Shown: positions 3,719 to 16,640, counted from the stretch's first letter. The stretch is 64,000 nt of DNA from Bacillota bacterium (GCA_050952625.1 JBMNLH010000001.1:1568001-1632000); one strand, 5' to 3'. The notes: generated by a model from the sequence alone, not told the origin. Made by a program: numbers and translations.

Positions 3719-3745
3719 TCATACTTGGCTGAATGGCAGAATCAT
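3719..3745 (-). CDS. Leader peptide uORF MILPFSQV of ABC-F attenuator
   Basis: GGGGAG RBS then ATG ATT CTG CCA TTC AGC CAA GTA TGA, about 110 nt upstream of the terminator. Confidence 0.6.
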   Translation of the reverse strand: MILPFSQV

Positions 3746-10208: not shown

Positions 10209-10465
10209 TTGGCCGGGGGACGGACAGAGGTGTGAACACTTCCTGTCACGTCACTGGTTATAATCACGACCTTTTCGCCGGGTTTGACAATTACCCGCAG
10301 CCGGGGCGTGCCGATAGGATGTTCCACTGCGTAAACCACTTCTGCCACTTCCGCCACTTCCGGCCGTCCGGGCAGCATCGGATTTACGCTTAATACTTTG
10401 AGCAAATTATTATCGTTTATCGCAAACTCCTAGCAATCACGCCCATAGCCGAACTTCACCTGCAT
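10205..10465 (-). pseudogene. larA: Lactate racemase LarA N-terminal remnant
   Basis: MQVKFGYG...(in-frame TAG)...HPIGTPRL...VKPGEKVVIITSDVT, then truncated. Confidence 0.7.
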
Positions 10466-10482: not shown

Positions 10483-10647
10483 TCACTTGCCCTTTTTTTT
10501 ATAAGCCACAGTGCAGATTAAGGCCATGAGCATTAGGATAACCGTCGGCCCAGGGTTGCCTCCGGTAGTAACGCCACGAGCAGCGAACCCGAGTGAGGCA
10601 GCAGCAAAGATCAGTGCTAGTATTCTCAGGACATTTCTATTAAACAT
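10483..10647 (-). CDS. Small two-TM hypothetical membrane protein
   Basis: 54 aa, two hydrophobic segments, basic tail; AGGGGG RBS abuts the IS right end. Confidence 0.5.
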   Translation of the reverse strand: MFNRNVLRILALIFAAASLGFAARGVTTGGNPGPTVILMLMALICTVAYKKKGK

Positions 10648-10699
10648 TTTGAAACCCCCTCTGAACCTCCCCATGGCTAAAGTTATCTATACTCTTAAC

Positions 10700-10728
10700 G
10701 AGAGAGCCTGTTAAAATAAGGCTCTCTC
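10700..10728. terminator. Hairpin downstream of tnpC
   Basis: Perfect 10-bp inverted repeat GAGAGAGCCT...AGGCTCTCTC; weak U-tract. Confidence 0.5.
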
Positions 10729-10786
10729 ATTCTTTATATATTCACAACGTATATTTTGTTTCCTTATAAGAGGCAACAACTCAATC

Positions 10787-11176
10787 TTACTCCAGCGATT
10801 CGTAAAGTTTTCCCCGCAGTATTTTCAGTTCCTCTTTCAACCGCTTGTTTTCGGCCTCCAGTTCCTTGATTCGCTTGTTTTTCGCGGCAATAATGATGTC
10901 CTTGCTGGCATCGGTCATTTCCCGTTTTATCTGCTTCGGAGAAGGAGCGGCCGCCTGCTGCTTACGGAGGTTCTCGATGCGCTCCTTGAGCTCCTGGTGG
11001 GTGTAAAGATAGGACTTGCTCACCCCAGCCTTCAGAGAAACACTGTTGAAGTTGATTTTCTCCCCGGCTTTAATCAGCTTTTGGATTGCCTCGTCAACCT
11101 TTTTTACGGTTTCCTCGCTCTTACGCCTGGCGTGTTTTTTTATTCCTTCCGTGTTACGCTGGTGTTTGACGGACAT
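10787..11176 (-). CDS. tnpC: Tn554-family TnpC (DUF6262-like)
   Basis: AIQKLIKAGEKINFNSVS..AGVSKSYLY HTH plus C-terminal coiled coil; third gene of the trio. Confidence 0.85.
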   Translation of the reverse strand: MSVKHQRNTEGIKKHARRKSEETVKKVDEAIQKLIKAGEKINFNSVSLKAGVSKSYLYTHQELKERIENLRKQQAAAPSPKQIKREMTDASKDIIIAAKNKRIKELEAENKRLKEELKILRGKLYESLE

Positions 11177-13121
11177 TTAAACGTTCCTCCCCCACGTACT
11201 CCCGTCCCTTCTTGCCTGCCAGGTGACGGGTATGGCCATCTTTTAGAACGGCCAGAATCGCTTCGTAACGTTCCAGAAGGGCCTCGTTTTTCTCTACCCA
11301 GATGGTCCGGCCCTGGGCTTTGCCGCGCTCGATGACAGCCTTTACCTCCCTGATTTCCGCCTCAAACTGCGGGATAAAATCAGGGGTGGTGCACAAATTG
11401 CGGCAGGTCAGGCAGGGGTTCAACTGGTGCTTGCACTCCACTTTATTGGGCTTGAGGCAATAACCCAAAGGCGTCCTCACGGCGTCCAGGTTATAGCGGA
11501 TATACTCCCATTCAATTAGGTTTTCGTTCTCGATTTCGGAAGGGGCAATCTTCACAGGCTTACCCGTGGGGTCAATCCGGAAAAGGCCGTTCTTAGTAGC
11601 TTCCTTCCAAGACTTCCGCATGGTGGTATCGAGAATCTTGGCGTAGCGCAGGGTCATTTCCGGGGAAGCGTGAGCCATCCACTTTTGGACATGAAGAATA
11701 TTCATCCCGTTGTTAATTAATTCAACGCCTTTGGTGTGGCGAAAAGCGTGGTTGCGAAAATGGAATAACCGACCCTGATCGTCTACGATGTTGCATTTCT
11801 TGGCCAAGCGGTTGAGAGCTTCTCTAATTACCGCCCCTTCTGGTGGCCGGCCCTTGCGTTTTCCATTCAGACGGACAAACAGTAATTTATTAGGGTTGTT
11901 TTCCGGCGTGCTTTTTTCTTTCACATCATCAACTACGGCTTGAACTACCGCAGCCACCTCATCGGTAATAGGGACACGGTGATTTAATACTTGGGTTTTA
12001 AGAATATCGCCACAGAGCCACCAACCCTGAGCAGTACGATCCAGACATTTATCATAACGTAGATTCAGGATGTCAGATATGCGCCAACCTGTAGCACGGA
12101 GCAAAATAACGACGGGGATATACTCCGGTGGTGCCAACTGTTCTAAATTATCTTCTAATTGTTTCAGGACCCCTTCAGAAATAAATTTAATATCTTCTTC
12201 TGACCGCTTGGCTAACTTTGGAAAATCTTCCTTGAACAACAGTGAAGAGTGTGGTTTTTCTGGCGCCTCAGGATACTCGGCCCGCTGGATATGATCAAAA
12301 AAAACCCGCAGGCTAATTAGGCATTCACGATGTTGTTTTTGCCAGTCTTTTGTGTATGACCGGTACCACACTAAGTAATTCTCTATATCCTTTCGGGATA
12401 AACTCTTTAGATCTTGCCAATGAGGATATTGCTCATGAATAAAACGCAGGAACAAACGTATGGCCATTAAATCTGTTGCACATTGGGCATATGACCGGAC
12501 ACCTACACGCGCCTTTAGGTACCTTTTAGCCAGAGTTCGGAAGGGAATGGGAATGTTTTCGAAAGAAAGAAGGTAATCGGCCCTATTTTGAGTATATTTC
12601 GCTCCCGATATTTTTCGCATATCCCAAACGTCTTTTACAAATTCTTCCCGGTCGTCGTAGAAGTTGACTATAAACTCATATACCTGTCGTACTAAAGTTT
12701 CATAAGTATGACTGGACAAACGGCTTTTATTAACTGAAAATCCTTGGTCAATCAGATAAGAACGCCACCTAATCATAGCCTTTTCTCTTTCTAGCTCTGC
12801 AAAACTTCTGATCCCGGGGTAAGCTTGTACTAGAAAAGTGGCTAGGCGGTTAAGATGACTTCCATAGCTAGTAGCTGTTTGTAGCTGTAGGGTATGTTCT
12901 TGAAGGCGGCGAACTAAAAAAAACTTAATTTCCTCCTTGATACCTGGTTGTAAACGGGAAAAGTCAATAGTTTTACTGGTTGATGTCGATTTTTTAGTCC
13001 GAAACTCATCAAAAATGTGGTCGGTAATATCCCATTGATCATTTTCCCAGTAACCTTTTAGGGTTTCCTTAATCTCCTGCCATTTTGCCGGTGTCGGGAC
13101 CGTTCTGTAAACTGTGATCAC
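11154..13121 (-). CDS. tnpB: Tn554-family TnpB tyrosine recombinase
   Basis: GWRISD, HAFRH, AHASPEMTLRYA; C-terminal Cys cluster GYC...C...CLTCRNLC. Confidence 0.9.
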   Translation of the reverse strand: MITVYRTVPTPAKWQEIKETLKGYWENDQWDITDHIFDEFRTKKSTSTSKTIDFSRLQPGIKEEIKFFLVRRLQEHTLQLQTATSYGSHLNRLATFLVQAYPGIRSFAELEREKAMIRWRSYLIDQGFSVNKSRLSSHTYETLVRQVYEFIVNFYDDREEFVKDVWDMRKISGAKYTQNRADYLLSFENIPIPFRTLAKRYLKARVGVRSYAQCATDLMAIRLFLRFIHEQYPHWQDLKSLSRKDIENYLVWYRSYTKDWQKQHRECLISLRVFFDHIQRAEYPEAPEKPHSSLLFKEDFPKLAKRSEEDIKFISEGVLKQLEDNLEQLAPPEYIPVVILLRATGWRISDILNLRYDKCLDRTAQGWWLCGDILKTQVLNHRVPITDEVAAVVQAVVDDVKEKSTPENNPNKLLFVRLNGKRKGRPPEGAVIREALNRLAKKCNIVDDQGRLFHFRNHAFRHTKGVELINNGMNILHVQKWMAHASPEMTLRYAKILDTTMRKSWKEATKNGLFRIDPTGKPVKIAPSEIENENLIEWEYIRYNLDAVRTPLGYCLKPNKVECKHQLNPCLTCRNLCTTPDFIPQFEAEIREVKAVIERGKAQGRTIWVEKNEALLERYEAILAVLKDGHTRHLAGKKGREYVGEERLNVRQTPA

Positions 13122-14248
13122 TGTTCAGAGCCCTCCTTTTGCTGCCGTTTAAAGCGCATTTTTTCCTCTGCCTTCTCCCAGTCCTGGCGCAGGTCTTCGT
13201 CACTCGGGTGCAGGTAAATTTGCATGGTGGTCTGAACATGGGCATGTCCAGCACGTTTTTGCAAGTGTTCCGTTTTCCAACCGGCCCGGCGCAGTTCGGT
13301 TAAGGAACTATGTCGGAGTACATGGGGGCTGACGTTTATCCCTGTTTTGGCCTTTAGCCTGCGGAAAAGAGAAGCAACATCCTGGTATTCCATGGGCCAG
13401 TGCTTGTTTTCCCCAGACAGCTTGATAAAAACATGGTTTGTATCCACTTCATCTGTGTGGTATTCGGCCACGTAATCGAAAAACAGGTTGATTAAATCCG
13501 GGGAAACGTCCACCGTCCGGGGGCTACAGATGGTCTTGATCTCAGCAAGATTAGGGAGTTCGCCCCTGTCTCGGATATGTATTTTTCGGGCATCGGGCTC
13601 AAAGTCTTCCAGCCACAGGGCCAGGGCCTCACCAATGCGCATGGAGCTTTCCCACAAAAGCTGGATTAAAAATTTATCCCGTAAGTTTGAGCAGGCGTCA
13701 ATTAATTTGCCCACCTGCTCTTTGGAAATGGTCTTGGGCCGGGAACGGCGAACCTTAATTTTTAAAATCTTGCCCGGGTACTCCTTGTCCTTGTTGATGT
13801 GGTAGAGGAAGTCCTTAAAGCCTCGTCTGTTCCCAGGGATGGTCTTTTTTAGCCTCTCAGAAAGCTGTACGCTGTAGTCTTCGTGCCGCATGAGGTAGTC
13901 GTAGAAATTGAGGACCGTGGAAATTACGGTGTTCACGGTGGCCGGCCCGCGGGGAGACGTTACGGGTGTCGCCGGGATTACTTTCAGGTTCCCGTAGGGA
14001 TTTTGGAGCCAGCGCATGAAGGCGGCCATTTCGTCGATGCTGATTTTACGGTAATCCAGCCCCTCCTGCTCAAGGAATTCGAAAAAGAGTTTCAAATGCT
14101 GGCAATAGGCGCGGAGGCTGTTCCGGGCAGCCCCACTGTTATCCTTAAACTTGACGAACTGCACAACAGGAAGGACGGGTTCACTATTTGAGTCAACTAA
14201 CATATATCGAGTTTTTCCTTCGGAAGTTGTGATCGTTTCCACCCTCAT
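13118..14248 (-). CDS. tnpA: Tn554-family TnpA tyrosine recombinase
   Basis: SMRIGEAL, HVLRHS, GHAHVQTTMQIY. Confidence 0.9.
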   Translation of the reverse strand: MRVETITTSEGKTRYMLVDSNSEPVLPVVQFVKFKDNSGAARNSLRAYCQHLKLFFEFLEQEGLDYRKISIDEMAAFMRWLQNPYGNLKVIPATPVTSPRGPATVNTVISTVLNFYDYLMRHEDYSVQLSERLKKTIPGNRRGFKDFLYHINKDKEYPGKILKIKVRRSRPKTISKEQVGKLIDACSNLRDKFLIQLLWESSMRIGEALALWLEDFEPDARKIHIRDRGELPNLAEIKTICSPRTVDVSPDLINLFFDYVAEYHTDEVDTNHVFIKLSGENKHWPMEYQDVASLFRRLKAKTGINVSPHVLRHSSLTELRRAGWKTEHLQKRAGHAHVQTTMQIYLHPSDEDLRQDWEKAEEKMRFKRQQKEGSEQ

Positions 14249-14407
14249 TGGGGAATACCACCATCCAAAGCAATGTTTTCTATATTATACTACCAGTACT
14301 ATATTAACAAAATATATTTAAATAGTTTTTTAGGAAGAAAAATAGGGATAAACCCTTTCGTAGAATACCATAAGGTCTATCCCTTGCCTTAGTGCATTTA
14401 ACTAAAG

Positions 14408-14690
14408 CCAGGGGGTTCTAAGACCCCGTGTTGGCTACCATGAGTATTTCCATGTCTGCGTTCCTCTCTCAGCCGGCGAACCTGGGCTGAGCCTTAGAAT
14501 CTCGCTTCATCCAGAAAACTTCTTGCGAACGACCAGCTCTGTCCTTACCTTTTGGTCGAAGGAGCCCTCCAGGTTTCCCTTTCGGTTCTCGCTGGTTCGG
14601 CATCGGGCCACCCGCGTTCGCCAGGACGGTTCCGCCCTGCCCGGTTTGGGTCGGTATAGCCCAGGGTTTGAGCTTTATATCCCCATGCTG
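14408..14690 (-). ncRNA. Predicted TnpB omega-RNA (reRNA) scaffold; 3' hairpin and guide cut off by the Tn554-like insertion
   Basis: GC-rich non-coding stretch between the tnpB stop and the right-end hairpin, the position where IS200/IS605 omega-RNAs are encoded; boundaries approximate. Confidence 0.6.
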
Positions 14691-16123
14691 GTGGGTTTAT
14701 AGTAGTTGGCCGCTTTAAGGTTTTTGATCGTTTGCGTTAACATCGGTTCGTATTTCGGCCAGTCGGTTTGGGCTTTTTTCAAATCAACCTGCCATTTCCC
14801 GGTTTTATCTTGATCCACATACCGGGCTAGATAGGCGGAATAAAGGTCTCTTTGCGCTTTAACGCCACATTCACATTGGTGCCATCGTTTAGCCAGGGTT
14901 TTCTTTTCTTTTTTCCCGCATTGACAGGTTTGGGATAGGCTGGTTGGGCCAGCGGGGAATTCTATTACTTCTCCAGTCCGTTCAGTCTTTTGCTTTAACC
15001 GGGCGACGAATGTCCCCGGCCCTCGAAAGTTAACTGTTTTGCCAAAGTTTTTCTGGAATGACTTGTATGATAGAGCTTCCAGATAAATTCGGTTACCAGT
15101 TCGCAAGATTTCGTTAATCATCTTTCCATGCAGGGATTTTCGATATTCGGCTTGTTTGCGGTGAATTTCCGCGTGCTGGTTTTGAGTTTTTAAGTAGCGT
15201 TTGGATTTACGCCATTTCAGGTGGCCTTTTTTGATTGTCCCGTCTGGGTTATAGTTGTCCGGGTTATTCGCCCTTCTTTGCCGGTCCAGTTTGCGTTGCA
15301 GTTGTTTGATTTCTTTTTGCTGGCTTTCCAGCTCTGGGCAGAAGGGGCTTAAATTGGCTTCTGTTTCGCTTATCCTGGCAATAGTGGAAGGTCCGATGTC
15401 TAACCCCACAATCCCTTCTCGAATCTGATTTTGGGGTTTCTGATAAGGGGTGCCTTCACAGATTAGTTGGACGAAAAACCGAATTTTGCCGCCGATGATT
15501 CGTTTAACTATTCGAACGTATTTTACTCGACTATCTAGACCATGTTTTATTACCGGGTCATTAGAGTTAATTAGCGGCTTAAGCTCTAATCCATTCCATA
15601 TCACCCGATTATTTCGCCAGCGGATACCGGTTGAATTTGATTTGCCTTCAATACTGTTCAATTCTCCGTAGCGTTTAAATCTAACTCGCTCCGCTTCACC
15701 AGTTAGAGTTTTTTCGACTGCTTGATAAGCTCGGGAGGCTATCTTTTGAGCAGCTTGCGAATCCAGGTGTTCACCAATCCAGGAATTCCGAATTCGAGTG
15801 GCGTATCCGTGAAGGGCGTATTCAGAAAATCTGTATTTTTTTCTGGCTTCTTTAAAAACAGCTGACCGGGCGGCTTTTTCTGATTCGGTGTTACCAGGCA
15901 TAGTTTTGGCCTGACGATATAGTCTGGATCTAATCATCTGTTCTTTTCTTTTTAAGGCTTCCCCTAAACAGGCATTGTATAGTTGTCGGCCAGCTTCCAT
16001 TCGGGATAATATTGTCTTTTTCTGATGGGTATTTACTACTAAAGGCATTTCAATAATGAATGAAGGAGTTTTTGACTTGCCTGTTTTTTGTTTGCGTTTC
16101 TTGGCAATCAGGATCACCTCCAA
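14675..16123 (-). CDS. tnpB: IS200/IS605 TnpB RNA-guided endonuclease
   Basis: RuvC-I VGLDIG, RuvC-II IYLEAL, Zn-finger SQTCQCG...CECG, RuvC-III QRDLYSA; exact start uncertain. Confidence 0.9.
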   Translation of the reverse strand: MEVILIAKKRKQKTGKSKTPSFIIEMPLVVNTHQKKTILSRMEAGRQLYNACLGEALKRKEQMIRSRLYRQAKTMPGNTESEKAARSAVFKEARKKYRFSEYALHGYATRIRNSWIGEHLDSQAAQKIASRAYQAVEKTLTGEAERVRFKRYGELNSIEGKSNSTGIRWRNNRVIWNGLELKPLINSNDPVIKHGLDSRVKYVRIVKRIIGGKIRFFVQLICEGTPYQKPQNQIREGIVGLDIGPSTIARISETEANLSPFCPELESQQKEIKQLQRKLDRQRRANNPDNYNPDGTIKKGHLKWRKSKRYLKTQNQHAEIHRKQAEYRKSLHGKMINEILRTGNRIYLEALSYKSFQKNFGKTVNFRGPGTFVARLKQKTERTGEVIEFPAGPTSLSQTCQCGKKEKKTLAKRWHQCECGVKAQRDLYSAYLARYVDQDKTGKWQVDLKKAQTDWPKYEPMLTQTIKNLKAANYYKPTSMGI

Positions 16124-16128
16124 ACTGA

Positions 16129-16520
16129 TTAAACGTGTTTCTGGTTTTCAATGTATTGCTTAATAATCTCCAGGGGTGCTCCGCCTACGGTGGCGACGAA
16201 ATAACTATTAGTCCAAAGAGTCGGCATTCTTGTTTTTAGGTGCGGAAATTCGGTCCGCAAAATCCTTGAGGTTCGGCCTTTTATCTGCTTAATTAGGCGA
16301 TGAATGTCAAATTGAGGATCAATCCCGACCAGCAGGTGAACATGATCCGGCATAACCTCTAACTCAATTATTTCTGCCTGATACTCCTTGGCGGTTTGAT
16401 AGATTAATTCTTTTAACCGAACATCTACGTATAAACCAATACCTTACGTCGATATTTCGGGCACCAGACAACATGATATTTGCAGGAATATACGACATTA
16501 TGATTTGATTTAAAGCTCAT
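16129..16520 (-). pseudogene. tnpA: IS200-family Y1 HUH transposase TnpA with a 1-nt frameshift near 16430
   Basis: YSCKYHVVWCPKYRRKVL, then in a shifted frame MPDHVHLL...LWTNSYF...YIENQ; span 392 nt; may be a sequencing error. Confidence 0.85.
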
Positions 16521-16640
16521 AAACTAATTATACAGCATATTTCCAAGATAATTATATATACCAAAAAATTGCGGCCTAATGGCCGCCGTGCCTTATATCC
16601 CCATGCCTAAAGGCAGGGGCTTTACGGCACGTTTCGGTAA

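Follow-up and report, generated by a model that had tools for sequence, protein, structure and literature searches.

Why does a transposon sit exactly in the loop of a hairpin that marks the end of another mobile element, and is that hairpin its target? We examined this question in a stretch of 64,000 nucleotides from a Bacillota bacterium (GCA_050952625.1 JBMNLH010000001.1:1568001-1632000), which we call the window. Its minus strand carries an insertion sequence (IS) of the IS200/IS605 type, and the right-end (RE) hairpin of this IS is split by an element that resembles Tn554. A first-pass annotation had proposed that the element targets the ends of IS200/IS605 elements and might be a hyperparasite of them. 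We find that the element belongs to the Tn554 family and is intact and free of cargo, and that RE hairpins of such ISs have been used as insertion sites repeatedly, independently, and in both orientations. It is likely that the Tn554-family clade of this element recombines across the 6-bp centre of GC-rich, dyad-symmetric stem-loops, and that the lineage in the window prefers the sequence of the IS RE hairpin. Below, WIN is the window copy, G000 is the window's own genome, L numbers are loci with relatives, and X numbers are runs whose contigs were compared.

The insert and its junctions

The element encodes tnpA, tnpB, and tnpC, and we name its two sides after the outer genes. On the plus strand, the tnpC-side junction reads CTGAACCTCCCCATGG (10661-10676), CTAAAG (10677-10682), and then the start of the element, TTATCTATAC (from 10683). 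At the tnpA-side junction, the element ends with GTGCATTTAA (14392-14401), which is followed by a second CTAAAG (14402-14407) and by CCAGGGGGTTC (from 14408). The insert, which lies on the minus strand, is 3719 bp (10683-14401), or 3725 bp with one hexamer. The first-pass annotation had read both junctions in exactly this way, and its reconstruction of the target also holds: when the flanks are joined, they fold into a bulged RE hairpin with the hexamer over its loop, and this hairpin matches the intact left-end (LE) hairpin of the same IS at 16599-16619.

According to the accessible text of two papers on Tn554 and on the elements called SEs, the 6 bp of the target are kept at attL, and 6 bp from the left flank of the donor site land at attR (PMC3261861, PMC10214605). 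The hexamers are assigned below by this rule; the IS ends were assigned by reading the sequence.

10661-10676, minus strand: outer right end of the IS, with the TCAG cleavage tetranucleotide (10661-10664, CTGA on the plus strand) plus the RE hairpin's 3' arm
10677-10682, no strand: attR hexamer CTAAAG on the tnpC side, by the rule brought along from the donor site
14402-14407, no strand: attL hexamer CTAAAG on the tnpA side, by the rule the target's own copy (loop TAAA plus one stem pair)
14408-14418, minus strand: inner half (5' arm) of the RE hairpin, and guide GAAC (14415-14418)
16599-16640, minus strand: LE, with hairpin (16599-16619), guide AAAG (16620-16623), linker, and target TTAC (16637-16640)

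In IS608, guides and cleavage sites pair as AAAG/TTAC and GAAT/TCAA. Here, the minus strand of the LE reads TTAC, 13 nt, AAAG, and a bulged hairpin, and that of the RE reads GAAC, a bulged hairpin (split by the insert), AGGT, and TCAG. Both guide and cleavage pairs named in the first-pass annotation (AAAG with TTAC at the LE and GAAC with TCAG at the RE) are therefore present. All of the end features of IS200/IS605 elements that we looked for were found: subterminal imperfect hairpins at both ends, guides 5' of the hairpin foot, a TTAC-type target at the LE, and no inverted repeats. (The roles of the hairpins and guide tetranucleotides are described in the accessible text of PMC3597680.)

Uninterrupted copies of the predicted right end also exist. 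In G000, contig C4 (~346298-346340) contains a sister RE with a single CTAAAG; it is a remnant in which the outer arm, the hexamer, and the inner arm are contiguous, so that the outer-end string seen at 10661-10676 runs on into the inner half. A second uninterrupted RE, with the loop TTAAAG, is found on a metagenome contig of run X10 (at a loose end before 14412). X10 also contains a joint between opposite strands, from 10669 to 14436.

Misassembly had been raised as a concern for both junctions. A contig of run X7 (record 25), a run not flagged as a possible source of the window DNA, matches 10570-13413 with 0 differences and bridges the tnpC-side junction. At the tnpA side, another record of X7 (record 26) reaches only 14422, which is less than 31 nt past the junction, so we do not count this side as bridged. 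Neither the empty site (10682 joined to 14408) nor the circle junction was found in the run contigs; because these are contigs, they are uninformative on excision.

Within the insert, three overlapping and co-oriented genes have the order tnpA-tnpB-tnpC, as in the genuine Tn554 of plasmid pWBG4. Their products are close in size to those typical of the family (about 360, 630, and 125 aa):

10683-14401, minus strand: Tn554-family transposon of 3719 bp without cargo, present once in G000 (Pfam, blastn/tblastn, and alignments to Tn554)
10683-10692, minus strand: right terminal repeat, GTATAGATAA on the element strand, conserved in relatives
10700-10728, minus strand: terminator-like stem-loop just downstream of tnpC, GAGAGAGCC...GGCTCTCTC, read from the sequence and kept in L002 and L005; its function is presumed
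10787-11176, minus strand: tnpC-like gene, 129 aa, DUF6262 (Pfam PF19776, 83.4 bits); 53/125 aligned residues identical to Tn554 TnpC
11154-13121, minus strand: tnpB-like large tyrosine recombinase, 655 aa (Pfam Phage_integrase); 194/594 residues identical to Tn554 TnpB
13118-14248, minus strand: tnpA-like tyrosine recombinase, 376 aa (Pfam Phage_integrase and SAM-like N domain); 138/358 residues identical to Tn554 TnpA
14392-14401, minus strand: left terminal repeat, TTAAATGCAC on the element strand, with the conserved motif GGGATAGAC next inward (from sequence comparison)

Across global alignments, TnpA, TnpB, and TnpC are 38%, 33%, and 42% identical to their counterparts from Tn554 (tblastn E values of 9e-80, 6e-67, and 6e-24). 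In TnpB, R347, K375, H458, R461, H484, and Y493, as well as a cysteine cluster at the C-terminus, are invariant among 37 homologs, and the RIGE, HxLRH, and GHA...Y motifs of TnpA align with those of Tn554 TnpA, so both recombinases have the catalytic set. The closest protein relatives (P0002-P0028) include PTH_2659 from Pelotomaculum thermopropionicum (83%). If the terminal 10-mers TTAAATGCAC and GTATAGATAA are compared directly, they form an imperfect inverted repeat (6/10); the repeats are perfect in some relatives, with up to 11/11 in L010. The terminal motifs TTAAC.../...GATAA are like those of Tn554, whose ends are TTAACCATAG...CTCTTGATAA. Because the gene module, the protein homology, the catalytic motifs, and the similar terminal motifs all point to Tn554, we place the element in that family, as had been suggested.

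The junctions behave accordingly: there is no target duplication, and the 6-bp junction is inherited from the prior site. By its machinery the element is thus a Tn554-family member. Among the family features tested, only primary insertion in radC (att554) is lacking, and this concerns the choice of target rather than the recombination machinery. The recombinases are not of the IntI type, as integron integrase models from NCBIfam gave 52.8 and 35.4 bits (cutoffs of 265 and 435). Neither blastn nor tblastn found further copies in G000.

Right-end hairpins as repeated targets

The order and class of the host include only 7 genomes, and one other of these, from the same genus, has the element. This copy (L005, which is the same as L062 and L145) is 99.87% identical over 3747 bp. 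It splits an RE hairpin at the same hexamer, but it lies at a different locus and points the other way relative to the IS. The left flank of L005 is 95.0% identical over 4042 bp to contig C2 of G000, where the locus is IS-free, and the host IS of L005 is 93.3% identical to the window IS over 1595 bp.

The hexamers at L005 differ from each other. On the tnpA side is CTAAAG, the target's own, and on the tnpC side is the foreign hexamer CATTAG, which is one base from the reverse complement of CTAAAG. These are the hexamers that the rule predicts if the donor lay in such a hairpin with the window's orientation. Unlike hexamers are also found at L002, L003, and L064, and identical ones at WIN and L065; the identical hexamers fit a donor with the same hexamer. 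Given the nearly identical copy in another RE hairpin, the foreign CATTAG, and at least one further IS-hairpin context, the idea that the donor of the window copy sat in such a hairpin is reasonable.

The further contexts come from loose ends of contigs in runs X10 and X11, where the L005-type junction recurs. In a third context, the tnpA-side end of the element is followed by CTAAAG and CCAGGGGGTTCTAA, which leads into a more diverged IS-like interior. At one loose end of X11, there is a different outer flank ahead of CTGAACC.

Every context seen for the WIN/L005 element is an IS RE hairpin, and other sites were on offer. G000 contains 113 perfect GC-rich 8-bp stems with loops of 4-8 nt, 4 sites of the loose type C-run...GG / N6-7 / CC...G-run, and, as IS-type hairpins, one RE remnant and three of LE type. 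Finding only RE contexts despite 113 other stem-loops argues for a sequence preference within a general stem-loop habit.

Close relatives and rival explanations

We gathered relatives from a scan of GTDB genomes (61 loci) and from a scan of metagenomes (80 loci). At 76-100% DNA identity, there are 12 distinct insertions: WIN, L005, L001, L002, L003, L004 (the same as L069), L064, L065, L066, L067, L068, and L128. Of these, WIN and L005 alone carry one and the same element. Element ends were anchored by their motifs, for this close clade only; a blind scan for palindromic flanks at all loci and end-finding by terminal repeats were too noisy, with spurious internal repeats in AT-rich loci.

Both junctions can be read in 6/12 insertions, and all six of these fold as a stem-loop with the hexamer at the loop. 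Two are IS RE hairpins, three are terminator-like hairpins, and one is an imperfect hairpin of unknown nature. The fractions of random position pairs that reach the observed ungapped complementarity of the arms are 0.015, 0.014, 0, 0.0002, 0.0023, and 0.013 for the six sites, by a measure that under-counts both of the bulged IS hairpins. The sites, with two more that can be read on the right only, are:

WIN and L005: bulged RE hairpin of an IS200/IS605 right end
L002: 10-bp arms AAAACCCCGG / CCGGGGTTTT, with a T-run, ~40 bp after a CAP-domain gene
L064: 8-bp arms AACTCCGG / CCGGAGTT, with a T-run
L003: arms ACCCCGCA / TGCGGGGT, immediately downstream of tRNA-Gly(CCC), with a T-run on the tRNA strand
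L065: imperfect stem, with GGGAAT at both sides
L066: right flank, which starts with CCCGGCCGGC and then a T-run
L067: right flank, which starts with TGCCGGGG

The genes that flank sites of the L002, L003, and L064 type are ordinary, and there is no IS TnpB near these three (tblastn with the IS TnpB matched only L005/L062). In six related loci, the tRNA was the only match to Rfam models. Close homologs in radC, which would have spoken against the proposed targeting, were not found among the readable relatives: the window and 5/5 other close relatives with both junctions readable are in stem-loops, and 0 are in a JAB/RadC gene. The genomes of L001-L005 have a single copy each, and no tnpC-bearing contig was found for L001 or L004.

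In four of the relatives, a further conserved non-coding stretch of ~270 bp separates tnpC from the right end (L064:5860-6150, L065:4950-5250, L066:2735-3040, and L067:2935-3240). It folds into a long, near-perfect stem (consensus of -85.6 kcal/mol with 85 pairs, 3 of them with compensatory change) and has no match in Rfam. It could be a nested miniature inverted-repeat transposable element (MITE) or a structured RNA.

We propose the following mechanism. The element would probably circularise, as Tn554 does, which would place its imperfect terminal inverted repeats on either side of a 6-bp coupling sequence, itself a copy of the tnpA-side flank of the donor. The circle would then recombine with a target over a 6-bp overlap, perhaps by a staggered exchange at both edges of the 6 bp, with no target duplication; hexamers could be unlike because the exchange would need no homology. 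For the clade, the target would be the centre of a GC-rich, dyad-symmetric stem-loop, with, roughly, a C-rich arm ending in GG, 6-7 nt, and CC followed by a G-rich arm. The sequence preferred by the window lineage would be CCCCATGG / CTAAAG / CCAGGGGG, which is the IS200/IS605 RE hairpin, and its relatives would use hairpins like those of intrinsic terminators. The circle junction would place 6 bp between the right and left repeats, just as the target has 6 bp between its two arms; both would be laid out like a tyrosine-recombinase core site, but with unrelated arms. A plausible split of labour is that the element termini are handled by one recombinase and the target arms by the other. Either orientation would be possible, as observed, because the target is nearly symmetric.

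More tentatively, a Tn554 lineage may have become specialised on the IS200/IS605 RE hairpin. The recombinase pair would read the stem-loop (the arms and the 6-nt centre) as its attB, new IS copies would be fresh and neutral landing pads, and each insertion would disable the copy that it enters. Intrinsic terminators would play this part for sister lineages.

Alternatively, the folded hairpin or cruciform could be what is read, as integron integrases do with attC, and then any stable GC-rich stem-loop would serve. The target arms of the relatives differ in sequence while the stem-loop geometry is kept, and the quasi-symmetric IS hairpin has been entered in either orientation, as expected if structure is recognised. 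But one lineage has hit the same sequence at least three times when many other hairpins were on offer, and the common arms (C-run...GG and CC...G-run) suggest contacts with bases. Together with the low score of the integron integrase model, this makes purely structure-specific targeting doubtful.

Could the ends of IS200/IS605 elements, a multicopy and neutral target that renews itself, be recognised as such, perhaps via the guide or cleavage sequences, or in a single-stranded or TnpA-bound state? This is the specificity that was first proposed. It would account for why all contexts of the element (the window, L005, and at least one more in X10/X11) are RE hairpins of one IS family, despite the other stem-loops of G000, and both window hexamers and the foreign L005 hexamer look hairpin-derived. 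On the other hand, relatives at 76-91% identity use terminator-like hairpins with no IS nearby and with ordinary flanking genes, the shared C-rich and G-rich arms are enough to explain the matches, and no LE hairpin of this IS was seen to be occupied. We therefore consider recognition of IS ends as such to be unlikely. The claim of IS-end targeting stands for the contexts of WIN and L005 and not for the clade, because close homologs sit in other stem-loops; the common denominator of the clade is the GC-rich, dyad-symmetric stem-loop. Similarly, "hyperparasite" is an interpretation for one lineage, rather than a demonstrated adaptation.

It is very improbable that the IS and the transposon move together as a composite, or that one copy arose by inversion in place, in which case the two copies would not be independent. 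Inversion is conceivable, as a palindromic target and terminal inverted repeats would make attL and attR near inverted copies of each other. But the host ISs are at different loci and are 93.3% identical, versus 99.87% for the transposon, and a split RE hairpin should block recognition by the Y1 transposase (given the mechanism in the accessible text of PMC3597680). Finally, chance insertion by an element of low specificity, or an assembly artefact, would suit the single copy in G000 but is barely credible, given that independent assemblies show this kind of site again, that an identical contig bridges the tnpC-side junction, and that the junctions are base-precise at the loop.

We return to our preferred explanation, that the clade recombines across the centre of GC-rich stem-loops and that the window lineage prefers the RE hairpin. 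Several points weigh against it. The third and fourth contexts of the window lineage come only from contig ends of 30 letters. More than one context is available for the WIN/L005 lineage alone, and every relative was observed at one site only. The stem-loop at L065 is weak (dG of -6.2 and z of about -0.3). The left-only flanks of L001, L004, L068, and L128 cannot be judged, and that of L128 is not obviously GC-rich. LE hairpins share CTAAAG, yet none was seen to be occupied in this small sample. The present data do not separate recognition of sequence from recognition of structure, or a duplex target from an extruded hairpin. Lastly, distant relatives, including a group whose TnpB is 48-51% identical, lack strong dyad symmetry at their sites.

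Among these distant relatives, a gut group (part of the set with 48-51% identical TnpB) has CCAGCC at both sides and lies beside a DUF3849 gene. L039 and L058, which belong to the same set and are two contigs from one metagenome-assembled genome (48% identical TnpB), are at the same position of two genes for Y-family DNA polymerases (IMS), with GGTTCA junctions; this target is gene-specific, like radC for Tn554. L012 is in a palindrome with 13-bp arms, and several elements from Bacillus and Clostridium are in recurrent intergenic sites. The stem-loop rule is therefore a property of the close clade and is not family-wide. For relatives at intermediate distance (TnpB 60-70% identical), megablast returned duplicate records only, and the ends could not be fixed.

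The recurrent sites of L009, L010, L020, L021, L019, L037, L087, L089, L093, and L094 fall into a few intergenic types, GGGGTAG... / ...C[CT]ACCCC and GCTTAACGTTGTAAAT / ATTTACAACGTTAAG. Several of these Bacillus and Clostridium elements have junction hexamers that are reverse complements of each other (GTCGGA/TCCGAC and ATGCGG/CCGCAT), as would be expected if successive insertions in near-symmetric sites alternate in orientation. The flanks of L074 are perfect mutual inverted repeats for at least 30 bp past the junctions, which points either to a long palindrome as the insertion site or to an artefact of assembly. Large TnpB-type recombinases are widespread beyond staphylococci and enterococci (773 hits among 8000 candidates scored). 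In a search of plasmids, 429 records matched, with Bacillus (115) and Rhodococcus (63) at the top. Metagenome contigs are often roughly the size of an element (3-5 kb), as expected for repeats, which break assemblies.

The host IS and known systems

The IS that was entered has the following parts, besides the ends given above:

10661-16636, minus strand: whole host IS, with its left boundary at 16636
14419-14674, minus strand: non-coding RE region 3' of the IS tnpB, presumed from its position to be an omega-RNA scaffold
14675-16123, minus strand: IS TnpB, of the RNA-guided nuclease family, 482 aa (NCBIfam guided_TnpB, 103.1 bits versus a cutoff of 100; Pfam TNB domain)
16129-16520, minus strand: IS TnpA, a Y1 HUH transposase in two frames (positions 49-121 of Pfam Y1_Tnp on a 74-aa open reading frame; three-frame translation)

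A TnpB nuclease downstream of tnpA is typical of IS200/IS605 elements. The Y1 domain scores 92.8 bits, and the HUH motif (HVHLL) and the region of the catalytic tyrosine are present, in two frames. An apparent frameshift lies near 16420-16440 (within 16400-16460), where MSFKSNH...KVLVYT* gives way to ...VDVRLKELIYQ...HVHLL...; the shift may be real or may stem from an assembly indel. Between 10300 and 17000, no Rfam family matched at E <= 0.1. The non-coding RE region is now cut off from the IS boundary. Because the insert both splits the RE hairpin that the Y1 transposase needs and parts the region of the TnpB guide RNA from the boundary, this copy of the IS is presumably immobilised, or dead.

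In G000, C2:7978-8142 is a gene-less miniature of the IS, in which part of the RE region is joined directly to the LE hairpin (similar to palindrome-associated transposable elements, or PATEs, and to MITEs). It is also found in contigs of runs X11 and X15 (loose end behind window position 14677). This IS family therefore has non-autonomous derivatives. A 63-aa open reading frame without a Pfam match (10483-10674, minus strand) lies against the outer end of the IS, with a slight overlap.

Other mobile elements are known to use stem-loops. Class C group II introns, which are retroelements, home to the stem-loops of terminators as safe harbours, and IS1397 and ISKpn1 insert in the loops of repetitive extragenic palindromic (REP) sequences. 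According to the accessible descriptions of ISPpu9 and ISPpu10, these REP-targeting members of the IS110 family also use multicopy extragenic stem-loops as neutral landing sites. Unlike the paired tyrosine recombinases described here, the palindrome-targeting ISs rely on DEDD or bridge-RNA-guided transposases, or on DDE transposases. Integron integrases share with the window element that a tyrosine recombinase acts on a palindromic, hairpin-forming site (folded attC; accessible text of PMC3053210). However, IntI is a single recombinase, and the window proteins are far below its NCBIfam cutoffs.

With the other members of its family (Tn554, Tn558, Tn559, Tn6188, Tn6674, and Tn553), the element shares the tnpA-tnpB-tnpC module with a DUF6262 TnpC, the imperfect terminal repeats, the lack of target duplication, and the 6-bp junction from the prior site (accessible text of PMC3261861 and PMC10214605). 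It differs in that it has no resistance cargo, and in its targets, which are the loops of GC-rich stem-loops (IS RE or terminator-like) instead of radC/att554. Its host is a Syntrophomonadaceae-type bacterium from an anaerobic digester, whereas the accessible text of PMC10214605 reports narrow hosts and targets for the Tn554 type, namely staphylococci and enterococci, and radC. The genuine Tn554 on pWBG4 of Staphylococcus aureus adjoins a JAB (RadC-like) gene, and its TnpC is annotated as DUF6262. On pWBG4 (L144; ~3721-3738 and 10392-10416), the tnpA-side junction reads TACATC and the opposite one its reverse complement, GATGTA (the ends were placed by motif similarity only), and the radC-like JAB frame runs into the element.

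The SEs keep the 6 bp of the target at attL and have a 6-bp footprint of the donor's left flank at attR, but they have a fourth core gene, tfp, that is absent here, and the targets named in the accessible text are genes rather than hairpin loops, with one SE inside an IS3 gene (PMC10214605). The same text states that SEs and GInts have no sequence similarity to each other. In the literature that we searched, which leaves out older work on Tn554, most subscription papers, and supplements, we found no description of Tn554-type insertion into the ends of IS200/IS605 elements or into terminator loops. Judging from titles and abstracts, the papers that name both Tn554 and IS605 are surveys of genomes or of resistance.

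How Tn554-type elements work is still poorly explained, including why they need two recombinases, what TnpC does, and where the 6-bp footprint comes from. Related elements with short stem-loop targets that can be synthesised offer a direct handle on target recognition (the arms versus the central 6 bp, duplex versus folded DNA, and which protein binds each half-site). A recombinase pair that enters a 22-bp palindrome without homology in the overlap may also interest those who build integration tools. Since the loops of terminators and of IS ends are near-neutral and multicopy, they would be another answer to the safe-harbour problem. Insertion in the recognition hairpin of an IS is a plain example of how one mobile element can disable another. 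If the lineage in the window is specialised on this hairpin, then one transposon would be parasitising the recognition structure of another.

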